The position numbers and the translations under genes were made by a program. Shown piece by piece: positions 3,001 to 54,345 of a stretch of DNA of 64,000 nt. Location of the stretch: positions 728-64,727 of the forward strand of contig JAYWMQ010000017.1 of the NCBI GenBank assembly GCA_035873375.1, given 5' to 3'. Source of the stretch: Nitrospirota bacterium. GTDB lineage: Bacteria; Nitrospirota; Thermodesulfovibrionia; Thermodesulfovibrionales; JdFR-85. Positions within the stretch are counted from its first letter, which is position 1. Each line of letters begins with the position of its first letter. The notes under the pieces are model-generated. The model was not told the DNA's origin. It searched no databases and worked only from the letters and a program-made list of their open reading frames with translations.

Positions 3001-3146
3001 GAAAGGGAATGAGGTATAGAGTTTTCACTCATTCTCGTCCCGGCGTCCGGCCGGGACTCCGATCCCGAAGTACTTCGACTCACCTTCCGGGTGAGACAAA
3101 AGTGATAATTTGAAACCGTTCAAACTCTATACCCGCATTCCCTTTC
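3001..3146. repeat. 146-bp element bounded by 24/25-bp terminal inverted repeats with three internal GC-rich hairpins (MITE-like element or structured RNA)
   Basis: GAAAGGGAATGAGGTATAGAGTTT (3001-3024) pairs with AAACTCTATACCCGCATTCCCTTTC (3122-3146). Internal stems are GTCCCGGC/GCCGGGAC, CGAAG/CTTCG and CTCACC/GGTGAG. AGAA sits on both flanks (2997-3000 and 3147-3150). Confidence 0.6.
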
Positions 3147-3288
3147 AGAAATTGACGGGATTTCTCCCGGCAGTTCTGGAAGAGGTATCCCTGGTTGAAA
3201 CAATAACGCCTATTGTTATAAAATTTCATAACTGAATGTTCTGCTTCATCACCAAAAAAACTATCAATTATCAGGGAGGTGTTAGAGA

Positions 3289-7672: not shown

Positions 7673-9628
7673 ATGGAGGAAGTTGTGGGGAAGAATATTG
7701 TACATAAGATTTTTGAGGCTCACCTTGTAAAGGGTGAGCTTAAAAAAGGGGAAACTGTCTCCCTGAGAGTGGATGAAGTCTATACACAGGATGCTACAGG
7801 CACCATGGCCTGGCTCCAGTTTGAGGCTATGGTGCTTGAAAGGGTAAAGGGCCCCCTTGCGGTGAGCTATGTTGACCATAACATGATTCAATCCAACCAC
7901 ATGAATCCTGATGACCACCTTTTCCTGCAGACCGCAGCGGCAAGGTTCGGCGCCTGGTTTTCAAAGCCCGGCAACGGAATATGCCATCAGGTCAATCTTG
8001 AGAGGTTTGCAAGCCCGGGCTGGATTACCCTCGGAACCGACAGCCATACACCGACAAACGGCGGCATGGGTATGATTGCCATCGGGGTTGGCGGGCTGGA
8101 TGCCGCCACAGCTATGGCTGGGATGCCCTTTGAGATAAAAATGCCGGAGGTAGTGCTTGTAAGGCTTGCAGGTAGACTCAGGCGGCCCTCGGCTACAGCC
8201 ATGGAAGTCATTCTTGAACTCCTGAGGAGGCTTACAGTCAAGGGTGGAGTGGGAAAGATTTTTGAGTATGGCGGCCCGGGGGTCGCTGACCTCAATGTCA
8301 CGGAAAGGGCAACCATTACAAACATGGGCGCAGAACTTGGCGCTACCACATCCGTTTTTCCGTCTGATGAAAGAACAGCACACTTCCTCAGGGCACAGGG
8401 CAGAGAAGAAGACTGGTCGGAACTCAGGGCAGACGAAGGTGCTCAATATGACGGGGTTGTCGAGATAGATCTGAGCAGCCTTGAGCCCCTGATTGCCCAG
8501 CCACATAGTCCGGACAATGTTGTCAGGATCAGGGATATCTCGGGCAAAAAGGTACATCAGGTATGTATCGGAAGCTGTACAAACTCCTCCTATCAGGCGA
8601 TGAGGGCAGTTGCATCGATCCTGCGAGGAAACAGGATTGCAGAACATGTGAGCCTTCATATAAATCCCGGGTCAAAACAGGTCTATGAGATGATCGCACG
8701 GGATGGCTCCCTGTCGGACATGATAGCCGCCGGTGCAAGGATGCTCGAGGCCTCATGTGGGCCCTGCATCGGGATGGGTGGGTCTCCCGGCACAGGACAT
8801 GTCTCCGTAAGGTCTTACAACAGGAATTTCAGGGGCCGCTGCGGCAACAAGGATGCCTCTGTCTTCCTCGCCAATCCCCTCGCCTGTGCCGTGATGGCAC
8901 TAAAGGGAGAGATAGTCGACCCGACTGAGACAGGCCTTGTGGTGGATGAGTTTACTGAACCGGAGGCCGCCCTTGTTAATGACAATATGCTCCTTGCACC
9001 ATTGGATGACGGCTCCGGAGTTGAGATAATAAAGGGCCCGAATATAAAAGAGGTGCCCCTCAAAGAGCCTGTAAAGGATGAGATAAGGGCTGAGGTACTC
9101 ATAAAGCTTGGAGACAATGTTACAACAGATGATATAATGCCTGCAGGTTCCCAGATACTGCCCTTCAGGTCAAATATCCCGGCGATCTCAGAATATGTCT
9201 TCTATAATATTGATTCAACCTTTGCAGAGAGGGCCAAAAAGGCAAAAGAGCACGGTGGCGGGATAATCATGGGGGGCGAAAACTATGGACAGGGCTCCTC
9301 AAGAGAGCATGCCGCCATTGCACCAATGTATCTTGGCATACAGGCAGTGATTGCAAAGTCTTTTGCAAGGATTCACAGGGCAAACCTGATAAACTTCGGT
9401 ATACTTCCCCTGATATTCACCAACCCGGGGGATATGGATAAAACAGACGAGGGGGATGTGTTGAGCATTACCGGGGTCGGGAGCTCTCTCATCACCAACC
9501 AGGAATACAGGGTAAATAACCTTACAAAGGGTCTGGAGTTTACCGTCTTCACTGACCTGAGTGAGCGTGACCGTGTCCTCCTGCTTTCCGGAGGACTGCT
9601 GTCTTTTGTAAAAAAACAGCTATCTTAA
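7673..9628 (+). CDS. aconitate hydratase (short ~650-aa form)
   Basis: 651 aa. Aconitase blocks: DEVYTQDATG, GTDSHT, the Fe-S Cys ligands IGSCTNSS and CGPCIGMG, and a swivel domain with GENYGQGSSREHAA. An alternative GTG start at 7685 has a better GGAGG RBS. Confidence 0.9.
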   Translation: MEEVVGKNIVHKIFEAHLVKGELKKGETVSLRVDEVYTQDATGTMAWLQFEAMVLERVKGPLAVSYVDHNMIQSNHMNPDDHLFLQTAAARFGAWFSKPGNGICHQVNLERFASPGWITLGTDSHTPTNGGMGMIAIGVGGLDAATAMAGMPFEIKMPEVVLVRLAGRLRRPSATAMEVILELLRRLTVKGGVGKIFEYGGPGVADLNVTERATITNMGAELGATTSVFPSDERTAHFLRAQGREEDWSELRADEGAQYDGVVEIDLSSLEPLIAQPHSPDNVVRIRDISGKKVHQVCIGSCTNSSYQAMRAVASILRGNRIAEHVSLHINPGSKQVYEMIARDGSLSDMIAAGARMLEASCGPCIGMGGSPGTGHVSVRSYNRNFRGRCGNKDASVFLANPLACAVMALKGEIVDPTETGLVVDEFTEPEAALVNDNMLLAPLDDGSGVEIIKGPNIKEVPLKEPVKDEIRAEVLIKLGDNVTTDDIMPAGSQILPFRSNIPAISEYVFYNIDSTFAERAKKAKEHGGGIIMGGENYGQGSSREHAAIAPMYLGIQAVIAKSFARIHRANLINFGILPLIFTNPGDMDKTDEGDVLSITGVGSSLITNQEYRVNNLTKGLEFTVFTDLSERDRVLLLSGGLLSFVKKQLS

Positions 9629-9703
9629 CAAAACCAGTGATAAAAGGTTGTTGGAAGCGATATGATAGACTCTTCACTGTGGATATAACCATCGATTAAG
9701 GAA

Positions 9704-9857
9704 AGCATGAGGAGAGTAGTTGAAAAAATTCATTTTCGATACCTTAATATACGGTTCATCAAGCTCCAGCCTTTAGTCTGACAGGCAAAAGACTTCAGAC
9801 TGTATTAATGGATGTTTATCGAGTTAATGAATTTTCTTCAGTTGCTCTCCTCATGCT
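9704..9857 (+). ncRNA. 154-nt rod-like imperfect hairpin (candidate structured RNA or processing/termination element) between aconitase and recQ
   Basis: AGCATGAGGAGAGTAGTTGAAAAAATTCATT..TCGATA (9704-9741) pairs with TATCGA..AATGAATTTTCTTCAGTTGCTCTCCTCATGCT (9817-9857). All three substitutions in the outer 21-bp stem are G-U compatible only on the plus strand. The apical hairpin is AGTCTGA/TCAGACT. Confidence 0.45.
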
Positions 9858-9902
9858 GACACGGGTAAAATTACACAACTCAAGTTGAATTTAAAGGTAA
9901 AC

Positions 9903-12062
9903 ATGTTTGATACATTAAAAAGGGTTTTTGGTTTTCAGGCCTTCCGTCCGAATCAGGAAGAGATTATAAAGAATATCCTGAAGGGCAGGGATGTTTTTGC
10001 TGTGATGCCCACAGGGGGTGGAAAATCGCTATGCTATCAATTACCCGCCAGGATAATGCAGGGGACAGTGGTTGTTGTAAGTCCCCTTATTGCGCTGATG
10101 AAGGACCAGGTTGATGCTGCCCTGGAAAACGGCATCTCCACGGCCTTTATAAACAGTTCCCTCAAACCCCGGGAAATGTCCGAAGTTTATCAAAGGCTGA
10201 GAAATCATGCCCTGGAGCTCCTCTACATTGCACCTGAACGCTTTGCAATGCCTGATTTCATTGAAACACTGAAAAACATCCCCGTCTCCCTTTTTGCCAT
10301 AGACGAGGCACATTGCATCTCTGAGTGGGGGCACGACTTCCGCCCTGATTACCTGAGACTCTCCAGTATTACCAGCGTCTTCCCAAATATTCCGGTTGCA
10401 GCCTTTACAGCCACGGCAACCCCCGGGGTTCAGGAAGATATAATCAGTAAAATCGGGCTCAGATCCCCATATACGGTACGTGCCTCATTTAACCGTCAGA
10501 ACCTTTTTTACCGGGTAACAGGAAAGACTGCAATAGAATCACAGATACTGGAATTCCTTGGCGGGCATACTGATGAGTCCGGCATCATTTACTGCACTAC
10601 ACGTGATTCCGTTGTCAAAATGGCTGACTTTCTGACAGCCAACGGTATTAAGGCCCTGCCCTACCATGCAGGATTGACGCCTGAGCAAAGGAAGAGGAAC
10701 CAGGAGGCCTTCAGCAGGGATGAGTTGACGGTAATTGTGGCAACGATTGCCTTTGGTATGGGAATAGACAAGTCAAATGTCCGTTTTGTCATTCATGCGG
10801 ACTTGCCGAAAAATATCGAGAGCTATTACCAGGAGACAGGACGAGCCGGGCGTGACGGTGAGCCCGCCTGGTGCATACTCTTCTTCAGCAGGGGAGACAT
10901 TCCGAAAATCAGATACTTTATTGATCAGATACCTGAAGACAAAGAGCGGACAATCGCCACAGAGAAACTGAATCAGATGGCAAGGTATGCATCACATAAT
11001 GTCTGCAGGCGCAAACACCTGCTCGGATATTTTGGAGAGGAATACGGGGATGAAAATTGCGGGGCATGCGATATTTGCACCGGCACTGTTGAAAAGGTTG
11101 ACATCACGATTGATGCACAGATACTGATGTCTGCCATGTCAAGGACTGGTCAGCGCTTTGGGATCAGGCATATCATTGATATTGTTACAGGAGCCAATAC
11201 AAAGCGTATCCGGGAGCTTCAGCACAACACCATAAAAACCTACGGGGCAGGCAGTCACAAGGATAAAAACCACTGGAGGTTCCTCGTTGATGAACTCCTT
11301 GCCCAGGACGTTATACGCCAGGATGGTGATAAGTATCCGGTACTGAAACTCACGGAAAAAGGTCAAAGCGTACTCTACGGAAAAGAGAAACTTACGGCAT
11401 TGAAAAGGGAGGAGACAAAGACAAGCCGCCGTACCGTACAGGACGATGAATTTAAGTCCTTTGACAAGGACCTCTTCAAGAGACTCAGGGTTTTGCGGAA
11501 AACCCTTGCTGAAGAGCAGCAGGTCCCTCCGTATATAATATTTTCAGACAGGAGCCTTCATGAGATGTGCAGGTATTATCCCGCAACCCTGCCGGACATG
11601 AAAAGGATCAGCGGGGTCGGGGATGCCAAGCTTGAACGCTACGGAGACGATTTTATAATGGAGATAAAGGCATACCTGAACGAAAACCCCGGTGTCCCGG
11701 TTCCTGATAATGAATATTCTGCCTTGCCTGTCAATCCGTTACGGAAGAAGGGAAAGGGAGAAACCGTTGAAAAAACATATGAGCTTTTCAGGGAGGGCCT
11801 GTCATTGGAAGGGATTGCAGAGACGCGTAATCTTTCGATATCCACAATCACGGGGCATCTTGAACAACTGATAAGAGATGGCCGTGACATAGATATAGAC
11901 CGTATCGTTGACCCCGCAAGGCGAAATAGCGTGGAAAAGCTTTTTTTGACCCTCCAGGTCTGGAACCTGAGGCCTGTTGTCGAACATTTTAATGGTACGG
12001 TAAGCTTTGAAGAGGCAAAAATTATAAGGGCCTCCCTGCAGCAGAAACAGGCAAATTTATAA
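9903..12062 (+). CDS. recQ: ATP-dependent DNA helicase RecQ
   Basis: The ORF begins at TTG 9885; the ATG at 9903 (MFDTLKRVFGF...) is the classic RecQ start. It has PTGGGKSLCYQ, DEAHCISEWGHDFRP, a zinc-binding Cys cluster, an HRDC domain, and an extra C-terminal wHTH-like tail. Confidence 0.93.
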   Translation: MFDTLKRVFGFQAFRPNQEEIIKNILKGRDVFAVMPTGGGKSLCYQLPARIMQGTVVVVSPLIALMKDQVDAALENGISTAFINSSLKPREMSEVYQRLRNHALELLYIAPERFAMPDFIETLKNIPVSLFAIDEAHCISEWGHDFRPDYLRLSSITSVFPNIPVAAFTATATPGVQEDIISKIGLRSPYTVRASFNRQNLFYRVTGKTAIESQILEFLGGHTDESGIIYCTTRDSVVKMADFLTANGIKALPYHAGLTPEQRKRNQEAFSRDELTVIVATIAFGMGIDKSNVRFVIHADLPKNIESYYQETGRAGRDGEPAWCILFFSRGDIPKIRYFIDQIPEDKERTIATEKLNQMARYASHNVCRRKHLLGYFGEEYGDENCGACDICTGTVEKVDITIDAQILMSAMSRTGQRFGIRHIIDIVTGANTKRIRELQHNTIKTYGAGSHKDKNHWRFLVDELLAQDVIRQDGDKYPVLKLTEKGQSVLYGKEKLTALKREETKTSRRTVQDDEFKSFDKDLFKRLRVLRKTLAEEQQVPPYIIFSDRSLHEMCRYYPATLPDMKRISGVGDAKLERYGDDFIMEIKAYLNENPGVPVPDNEYSALPVNPLRKKGKGETVEKTYELFREGLSLEGIAETRNLSISTITGHLEQLIRDGRDIDIDRIVDPARRNSVEKLFLTLQVWNLRPVVEHFNGTVSFEEAKIIRASLQQKQANL

Positions 12063-12285
12063 ATCTGTGATATAATATAAACAATAGCAGTCGTTGCAGA
12101 TAAAGAAAAAATTTCTCTAAATCTCATTGCCAAAATTCCTGCAAAAAACAGAACAACCCGAACCCGGCAATAAATGGTTGTTGAAAGCGTTATGATGGAG
12201 ACTTTTTATCACGGGAGCGGGGATTAACATAAACAGAAAATCCTGTAGTTTTAATCTCAGCAACATCATCAGAGGAGGAAGGGAA

Positions 12286-53788: not shown

Positions 53789-53974
53789 TCAACCCGGCGC
53801 TAATTTAGCACCCTGAAGACTCGCTACCTGACCCTGCATATCAGAATAGAAAGGACATTTTCTGTGGTCCTTGTTTTTACAATACTCCAGAAGCTGAAAA
53901 CGGCTCGGCATATAAGGGGTATCTCCAGCCCTGCAGGATGATACTATCCAGTCTCTAAGAAACGGGCATTTCAT
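53789..53974 (-). CDS. 61-aa Cys-rich peptide P1 (first gene of the PHP-GT4 / radical SAM operon)
   Basis: MKCPFLRDWIVSSCRAGDTPYMPSRFQLLEYCKNKDHRKCPFYSDMQGQVASLQGAKLAPG. A strong GGAGGAGGGAAGGA RBS precedes the internal ATG at 53974, while the track start at 54064 lacks one. Confidence 0.55.
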   Translation of the reverse strand: MKCPFLRDWIVSSCRAGDTPYMPSRFQLLEYCKNKDHRKCPFYSDMQGQVASLQGAKLAPG

Positions 53975-54203
53975 TAATCCTTCCCTCCTCCATAAAAAAG
54001 CAGTGTTTTTACCAAACAGCGCGCTTCCAGAAAAAACAGGTCCTTTATTCACCTTCCCAGTCATGGAATTCTCTGAATACCATGACTCTAAGATAGCAGG
54101 TGCATGTTACAGGGGTATTAAAGAAATGTTAATTTTTACCGGATTCAGCAAAAAGCCTTGATCAAGAAAAGGAAGTGATATGATTGACTCTGAACGGATT
54201 TAA

Positions 54204-54242
54204 GTATCACAAAAGATTCACCTGGATGGTGAATCGTGATAC
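54204..54242 (-). terminator. hairpin downstream of the response-regulator gene
   Basis: GTATCAC-AAAA-GATTCACC / GGTGAATC-GTGATAC gives 15 pairs with a 4-nt bulge. The U tract on the minus strand is weak. Confidence 0.45.
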
Positions 54243-54345
54243 TTTCCTCGGAGGAGGGCCGGATGCCCGACGAGAATGAGTGAAGAGTCTGTCATATCGC
54301 TTCCAACAACCATTTACCTCCGGACAACGGATTCGTGCTTTAATT

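Follow-up and report, generated by a model that had tools for sequence, protein, structure and literature searches.

Results

A Rod-Like Hairpin between the Aconitase and recQ Genes

The window analyzed here is the whole 64,000-nt stretch of a Nitrospirota contig, and the loci compared with it carry L numbers. In agreement with the initial annotation, an aconitase-family ORF (7673-9628) and recQ, starting with ATG at 9903, flank an imperfect palindrome, called here element Y (9704-9857, plus strand). The homologs of RecQ placed the window among Nitrospirota of marine sediment and hydrothermal samples. The structure of Y was assessed by folding of both strands and by RNAalifold and pair counts on five to six orthologs. 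The 154-nt sequence proved to be as described, and the ViennaRNA fold of the plus strand was one rod of 38 pairs, built of three coaxial helices and a ~75-nt interior.

The outer stem joins the 5′ arm (9704-9724) and the 3′ arm (9837-9857) over 21 contiguous pairs. Inward of it follow a bulged C at 9836 (absent in L001, L006, and L031), 10 pairs (AAAATTCATT/AATGAATTTT), a 2-nt bulge, and 6-7 pairs (TCGATA/TATCGA). The arms had been expected to pair over ~40 positions, and 21 + 10 + 7 pairs were found. The plus strand reads U-G, G-U, and U-G wobbles at the three outer-stem positions that are not Watson–Crick (9717, 9719, and 9720), where the minus strand has A-C mismatches, just as had been claimed. 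The MFE of the plus strand was −61.4 kcal/mol, with a shuffle mean of −30.4 (z = −8.1; 0 of 200 shuffles as good), and that of the minus strand −54.1 kcal/mol (z = −7.4). Hence, when the two strands were compared, as the initial annotation had proposed, the plus strand folded better.

The consensus fold of the interior (9742-9816), obtained with RNAalifold, consists of the helix AUACGGUU/AGACUGUAU, broken in L031, and a GCCU/AGGC hairpin with one compensatory change. The apical hairpin AGTCTGA/TCAGACT proposed earlier turned out to be specific for the window, as five relatives have A or C for G and RNAalifold favors a different interior fold. The ends of Y are 13-nt perfect terminal inverted repeats (AGCATGAGGAGAG/CTCTCCTCATGCT), extending to 21 paired nucleotides when wobbles are allowed; exact occurrences of the 13-nt repeat were found only at both ends of Y. 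The spacer separating Y from the recQ ATG (9858-9902) contains a weak ribosome-binding site, AAAGG. It shows 16-24% divergence among relatives and a 7-nt indel in L001.

Both neighboring genes are encoded on the plus strand, and a simple scan, one that could not score a 154-nt hairpin, detected no canonical terminator separating them; Y is therefore probably transcribed with its neighbors. The near-continuous double-stranded RNA of the predicted rod (21 + 10 + 7 coaxial pairs) reaches the ~20 bp length criterion of an RNase III substrate.

Full, Half, and Empty Alleles of Y

Ten syntenic aconitase–recQ spacers of one species-level Nitrospirota group, a cluster with at least 90% RecQ identity, were compared. 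Y was intact, at the same site and in the same orientation, in six distinct lineages (the window, L001, L006, L015/L018, L028/L029, and L031). L026 and L027, which come from two samples, shared one identical deletion that had removed the 5′ half of Y and fused the box upstream (GGTTGTTGGAAG) with mid-element sequence, making formation of the rod impossible. L030 represented a clean empty site, with AAGAAAGC joined directly to ACACGGGTAAAATTACAC, that is, the two flanks of the window joined seamlessly. The segment absent from this allele corresponds to 9707-9858 of the window (152 nt, with 1-nt boundary ambiguity), AAAGC being joined to ACACGGG. Comparison of the filled site, AAAGC[ATGAGG...CATGCTG]ACACGGG, with the empty one, AAAGCACACGGG, revealed neither a target-site duplication nor any other direct repeat, only the 1-nt ambiguity of the junction.

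The recQ genes of the empty L030 and of L031, which carries Y, are 99.6% identical (0.4% divergence), so the filled/empty polymorphism exists among close relatives. The absence of Y from one of two strains with near-identical recQ implies that the element is accessory and either young or easily lost, although the empty site of L030 could also have arisen by deletion instead of representing the pre-insertion state. The spacer alleles of the two strains (L030:1-100 and L031:1-300) were very different, the flank of L030 being similar to that of the window and dissimilar to that of L031. Near-identical recQ genes combined with different spacer alleles indicate recombination in the group, and the mosaic points to a breakpoint near the recQ start. 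Farther away, the syntenic L002 (79% recQ nucleotide identity) had unrelated sequence at the position of Y, and Y was absent from the more distant RecQ relatives (74-75% protein identity), whose loci are not syntenic.

These alleles do not agree with Y being a required regulatory RNA, since Y is half-deleted in L026/L027 and cleanly absent in L030. Strains are viable without Y; hence, any role of the element should be modulatory. Wherever Y was intact, its distance to the recQ start was held at 38-48 nt (~45 nt in the window), whereas the distance from the aconitase stop varied between 75 and more than 230 nt.

Divergence and Pairing of Y

Y differed from its orthologs by 5.8-7.8%. The fourfold-degenerate sites of the aconitase, recQ, and subtilase genes were ~16-24% different (about 19%), and the mean divergence of other spacers was ~15% (range 7 to 36%). 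This island of low divergence could reflect either purifying selection or an element younger than its flanks, as is often seen with mobile DNA.

The rod was well preserved, with 96.9% of its cells paired on the plus strand in the six distinct Y sequences; counts on five sequences gave 96.8% for the plus and 92.1% for the minus strand, and the plus-strand value ranged across counts from 96.5 to 96.9%. Three pairs had changed on both sides: 3/152 (C-G, U-G, U-A), 6/149 (G-C, A-U), and 68/81 (C-G, U-A), the first of them showing the complete path from C-G through the plus-strand wobble U-G to U-A. Five internal positions of the rod (pairs 3, 14, 16, 17, and 32) were wobbles on the plus strand only. 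Pairs 1 and 38, which would wobble only in the minus-strand reading, both lie at helix ends, where the plus-strand A-C breaks the pairing, and one A-G mismatch was noticed in the rod of L028. In all five orthologs tested the MFE of the plus strand was better than that of the minus strand, by 1.3 to 11.9 kcal/mol.

The bias of the wobbles is weak: five of five internal positions correspond to a one-sided p of ~0.03, and with the helix ends included the count of five versus two is not significant. The covariation analysis suggested earlier yielded three compensatory pairs and plus-strand wobbles, but the numbers are small, as 4 of 500 shuffles reached the covariation score and, in the tool's own trials, unconstrained related sequences often scored as well. 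The pairing changes seem to follow the pattern expected of a plus-strand hairpin, on the basis of few events. The initial annotation took the strand asymmetry as a sign of selection on RNA structure. Preservation of the rod in six lineages speaks for this claim, but the statistics are weak, and tolerance of G-T on one strand would fit a plus-strand hairpin of single-stranded DNA equally well.

Searches for Further Copies and for Known Families

No second copy of Y was detected in the 64-kb window or in ~170 kb of other loci by short-word BLAST and profile searches. When representative genomes, one per species, were scanned with both terminal repeats, only an unrelated Bacteroidia palindrome was matched; since the scan did not recover Y itself, the window's own genome lies outside that collection. 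A 19-mer from the interior of Y found three true relatives among metagenome contigs, from three assemblies and all of them at the aconitase–recQ spacer, and the other fifteen matches were due to chance. Nothing similar to Y was present in the plasmid and phage collections, and no transposase was found associated with it. Y is restricted to one locus and to one clade, the species-level group of marine and hydrothermal Nitrospirota. Judged from these searches, it appears so far to be an orphan, although a few diverged copies may exist per genome. In the initial annotation, many copies with target duplications had been named as the mark of a MITE. The filled/empty polymorphism agrees with such an element; extra copies and a duplication were not found.

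The proposed comparison with Rfam, including the 6S models, gave no family at the gathering score for the whole window or at E ≤ 10 for the spacer. At E ≤ 10, the spacer, the element at 3001, the subtilase leader, and the L018 spacer returned only sub-threshold matches to microRNA precursors and snoRNAs, reflecting the hairpin shape. Genes for tRNA or tmRNA were not found, and exact-sequence look-up of the RecQ of the window and of P0123 returned no record.

Element X and Box Z

The window also contains a repeated structured element of ~145 nt, X, at 3001-3147 (plus strand) and 54165-54304 (minus strand), with a remnant at 9653-9678; further copies are L018:2585-2724 (minus strand) and L028:~1111-1252. 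The sequence of its closing stem (~21 bp) varies between copies while the pairing is kept. X possesses conserved boxes (ACTCATTCTCGTC ... GTGATAnTTnAAAnCCGTTCA) and two or three internal hairpins. The fold z-scores were −8.0 (3001-3147) and −8.8 (54165-54304), six pairs showed compensatory changes among three copies, and no Rfam family matched X.

The distribution of X among the relatives was uneven. In the aconitase–recQ spacer it is complete in L018 and L028 and absent in L001 and L006, and the window keeps its first ~13 nt. At the miaA–OsmC spacer orthologous to window 3001-3147, L026:3045-3179 carries X in the opposite orientation, arms included, which suggests that it was inverted by recombination of its two arms or that it left the site and inserted again. 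In the leader of the subtilase gene, part of X persists in L026, and a larger deletion is seen in L001. X occurs at several sites and is inserted, deleted, and inverted among relatives; it is therefore a true repeated, unstable palindromic element.

X is accompanied by a box, Z (..CCrG..TAAAkGGTTGTTGrAAGCGwTATGA..GAGnCTTTTTAT..), present at 9630-9666, 12155-12225, 54345-54292 (minus strand), and L001:6262-6296. Z is placed upstream of recQ, of a subtilase gene, and of a small Cys-rich ORF, always oriented toward the gene. Sites with the box only look like deletion derivatives of box::X::box composites. One of them is the segment 9630-9678 (plus strand; repeats I2/I3), located outside Y, in which the left part of Z and the first ~13 nt of X remain as a deletion remnant of the full Z::X::Z seen in L018 and L028. 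This remnant marks the recQ spacer as a hotspot for palindromic inserts. The small ORF downstream of the box::X copy at 54165-54345 has 61 codons (53790-53974, minus strand; MKCPFLRDW...). Just past the recQ stop, a perfect extended −10 motif (TGATATAAT) was noticed at 12068-12076, similar motifs being present in L001, L002, and L026; its position would make the box at 12155-12225 a part of the subtilase 5′ leader.

Y shares with X a similar length, a long closing stem, the same spacer, and an insertion/deletion polymorphism among the same strains. It differs from X, which is multi-copy, occurs in both orientations, and has a three-hairpin interior with conserved boxes, and no significant similarity connects the two. 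Homology of Y to X was rejected, as local alignment to three X copies was no better than that of shuffles. The same holds for the likeness, reported in the initial annotation, of the first 13 nt of Y to the left end of the element at 3001. The empty allele of L030 assigns GAAAGC to the flank and ATGAGG to the insert, which also argues against homology with that end. The motif GAAAG-N1-3-ATGAGG occurs four times in the window (0.24 expected), twice inside ORFs.

A RAYT-Like Gene in the Window

The ORF 33693-34610 (minus strand) encodes a 305-aa protein in which a Y1_Tnp (IS200-like) domain is fused to a DnaA C-terminal helix-turn-helix (HTH). The best NCBIfam match of this Y1/DnaA-HTH protein was the REP-associated tyrosine transposase (E = 2e-19), with 69.9 bits under a cut-off of 80. 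The gene is flanked by inverted repeats of 34 nt (33659-33692 and 34637-34670; 88% complementary). Outside these two positions, their 19-nt core (GGGGTCAGGTCTCAACATT) is absent from the window. No similarity of these repeats to X or Y was detected.

Discussion

Y as a Proposed Accessory Palindromic Insertion

The reading that we prefer, giving it an even chance, regards Y as an accessory palindromic insertion of ~152 bp, either the relic of a non-autonomous element of the MITE/REPIN kind or a copy of one that seldom moves, co-transcribed with its neighbors, with a modest effect on mRNA, and dispensable. Such a small non-autonomous palindromic DNA element would have inserted into the aconitase–recQ spacer and would since have been carried in the aconitase–recQ transcript or in the recQ leader. 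Its RNA would fold into a rod of ~38 bp and would end ~45 nt ahead of the recQ start codon. Double-strand-specific RNases, e.g., RNase III, would find a suitable substrate in such a rod, which could also block exonucleases; the likely outcome is a modest shift in how stable the recQ or aconitase mRNA is or in how it is processed. The lack of a second copy in the searched sets, of a target-site duplication, and of an associated transposase speaks against the mobile origin.

Other Explanations of the Hairpin

The main alternative, and the core of the interpretation in the initial annotation, is that Y is a dedicated cis-regulatory RNA, whatever its origin, with the plus-strand rod as a selected RNase III/processing site or stability element that sets the expression of recQ (or aconitase). 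The three compensatory pairs and the five internal positions that wobble on the plus strand only, together with the stepwise replacement of C-G by U-A at one pair, are what such an RNA should display, and Y is two to three times less diverged than the neighboring spacers and fourfold sites. The fixed distance to the recQ start, accompanied by a variable one to the aconitase stop, fits as well. However, the rod is destroyed in L026/L027, and L030 lacks Y altogether despite a recQ 99.6% identical to that of a carrier. The nearest syntenic relative and all the more distant ones also lack Y. The interior helix is broken in L031, and the covariation is small and at a level that 4 of 500 shuffles and, often, unconstrained relatives attain. 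We consider this explanation unlikely, although the low divergence and the structure-preserving substitutions could reflect a genuine cis-regulatory role in the lineages that keep Y.

The wobble bias might instead be the imprint of a DNA hairpin, if Y were a strand-specific single-stranded hairpin moved seamlessly in and out by an HUH Y1 enzyme of the IS200/RAYT type. The long hairpins called REPINs are ascribed to RAYTs (PMC3116915, PMC5581495). The bias toward one strand, the seamless empty site of L030 free of a target duplication, and the presence in the same window of the RAYT-like Y1_Tnp/DnaA-C HTH gene bordered by 34-nt inverted repeats are all in line with this idea. What weakens it is that those repeats (GGGGTCAGGTCTCAACATT) are dissimilar to Y and limited to two occurrences in the window, that Y is not visibly composed of two inverted REP units, that no further copies turned up in the searched sets, and that the protein scores under the family cut-off. 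We regard such a movement of Y as quite improbable. The same low credence is given to its extension, according to which Y, and perhaps X, would be non-autonomous hairpins moving as single-stranded DNA through the Y1/DnaA-HTH protein and captured as leader modulators (of recQ, subtilase, and OsmC).

The remaining explanations ascribe to Y a product or a signal of its own. A possible 18-codon ORF with a TTG start (MKKFIFDTLIYGSSSSSL; 9720-9776, plus strand) was tentatively read from the sequence and the alignment, with weak support, and Y might be the folded mRNA of this small gene or uORF, with the ribosome-binding site and the start locked by the 3′ arm as in type I toxin mRNAs. AGGAG lies 5 nt upstream of the TTG, and both are paired with CUCUCCU of the 3′ arm; the frame is free of indels across six orthologs, and its changes are TTA/TTG/CTG (all Leu) and TAG/TAA (stop kept), S/G and L/P occurring only in the last two codons. 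These amount to about six substitution events, a pattern with a chance probability of ~0.1 given the transition bias, and most of the codons lie within the rod, so the structure alone accounts for their conservation. Among the type I toxin features, only the pairing of the Shine–Dalgarno sequence and the start in the rod was found: the peptide is not hydrophobic, unlike those toxins, nor is it a membrane helix, and an antisense gene was not found. The ORF is, moreover, lost with Y in L026 and L030, and a coding function of this kind is very unlikely. Two other frames were rejected, the one from ATG 9707 being lost in L001 and L006 (ATA there) and the one at 9808-9888 being broken by a 1-nt indel, and neither forms a conserved ORF in Y.

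An independent rod-shaped small RNA, e.g., a 6S-like one, had been listed among the options in the initial annotation on account of the shape. The length of ~150 nt and a weak promoter-like site upstream (9637-9666) would suit it, but no 6S or other Rfam model matched at E ≤ 10, the plus strand has no terminator after the rod, and the spacing of the promoter-like site is not conserved. Near-identical strains would be expected to share a housekeeping RNA, yet Y is missing in such a strain and in relatives. The option of a long terminator, raised at the same time, fares no better. The plus-strand sequence after the rod, GACACGGGUAAAA, contains no U-tract, and the terminator scan was negative; lacking a U-run after the stem, Y is not an intrinsic terminator for aconitase. 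For a minus-strand transcript the case is somewhat different, since there the rod is followed by a partial U-tract, UUUCCUUAAU (UUUUCUUAAU in L006), but no gene or promoter-like site of the minus strand lies to the right of Y, and the wobble pattern favors the plus strand. Both the 6S-like RNA and the terminator, each extremely improbable, are essentially excluded.

Several candidate signals in the upstream region were also discarded. The sigma-70-like site at 9637-9666 is one promoter-like site where shuffles contain 1.1 on average, and its spacer is 20 nt in L028. Sigma-54, sigma-28, and ECF readings of the repeated box were rejected, by eye, on spacing. An iron-responsive-element-like loop, CAGUGA at 9635, of the kind bound by aconitase, misfits in geometry, and its motif is not conserved in L006 and L018. 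A terminator-like hairpin (GTCCTCCTGCTTTCCGGAGGAC followed by TGCTGTCTTTTGT) was noticed at 9575-9609, still within the aconitase reading frame, in its final ~50 nt ahead of the stop codon.

Relation to Known Palindromic Elements

Regarded as an accessory insertion, Y resembles Correia/NEMIS of Neisseria, ERIC/IRU of enterobacteria, and YPAL: all are non-coding, intergenic, 100-170 bp long, and form a long imperfect stem-loop, with filled and empty sites among close relatives. Those elements are present in tens to hundreds of copies, usually with a TA or other target duplication and with terminal repeats common to all copies, whereas Y is known from a single copy, lacks a duplication, and is not similar to any of them in sequence. 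Correia/NEMIS and ERIC, likewise small and palindromic, are known to be co-transcribed and to exert their effect via RNase III or RNase E; the transcripts of NEMIS (RNase III) and ERIC (RNase E) fold into rods, and the action of the RNases depends on orientation (PMC2229807). By analogy, Y may be cut by RNase III or may alter the stability of mRNA.

With REPINs and their RAYTs Y has in common the long extragenic hairpin, the lack of a target duplication, the apparently seamless presence or absence, and a RAYT-like gene in the same window. REPINs, however, occur in many copies, and their REP sequence recurs in the repeats on either side of the RAYT gene; Y shares nothing with the repeats that flank the RAYT-like gene here. 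The palindrome-associated elements derived from IS200/IS605 have separate left and right subterminal hairpins, in contrast to the single end-to-end rod of Y.

The rnc and pnp leaders of E. coli contain hairpins processed by RNase III that are conserved features of their operons. Like Y, they present a coaxial double-stranded RNA rod of more than two helical turns in a leader just upstream of an ORF. Unlike those leaders, Y is optional within the species, and its cleavage is only inferred.

If Y is indeed an accessory insertion, it makes a cautionary case, in which a very stable, strand-biased, and partly covarying hairpin next to a DNA-repair gene mimics a regulatory RNA and is yet optional. 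Uncultured marine Nitrospirota would then harbor palindromic inserts of at least two kinds with gene leaders as landing sites, and such inserts could be used to study gain, inversion, deletion, and the tuning of neighbor genes. The natural full, half, and empty alleles of Y offer ready comparisons for metatranscriptomics. Should Y or X move as single-stranded DNA, a REPIN-like system with long, structurally complex cargo would exist in Nitrospirota. The more interesting lead is the unstable family of structured inserts, X, together with the nearby Y1/DnaA-HTH gene.

A palindrome of another kind was seen upstream of recQ in L022 (1020-1145; 75% RecQ identity). It is rod-like, ~125 nt long, rich in G and C runs, and unrelated to Y. 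The ends of a palindrome on a Bacteroidia contig (L003:940-1100), GGAGAGGGG, are similar to those of L022.
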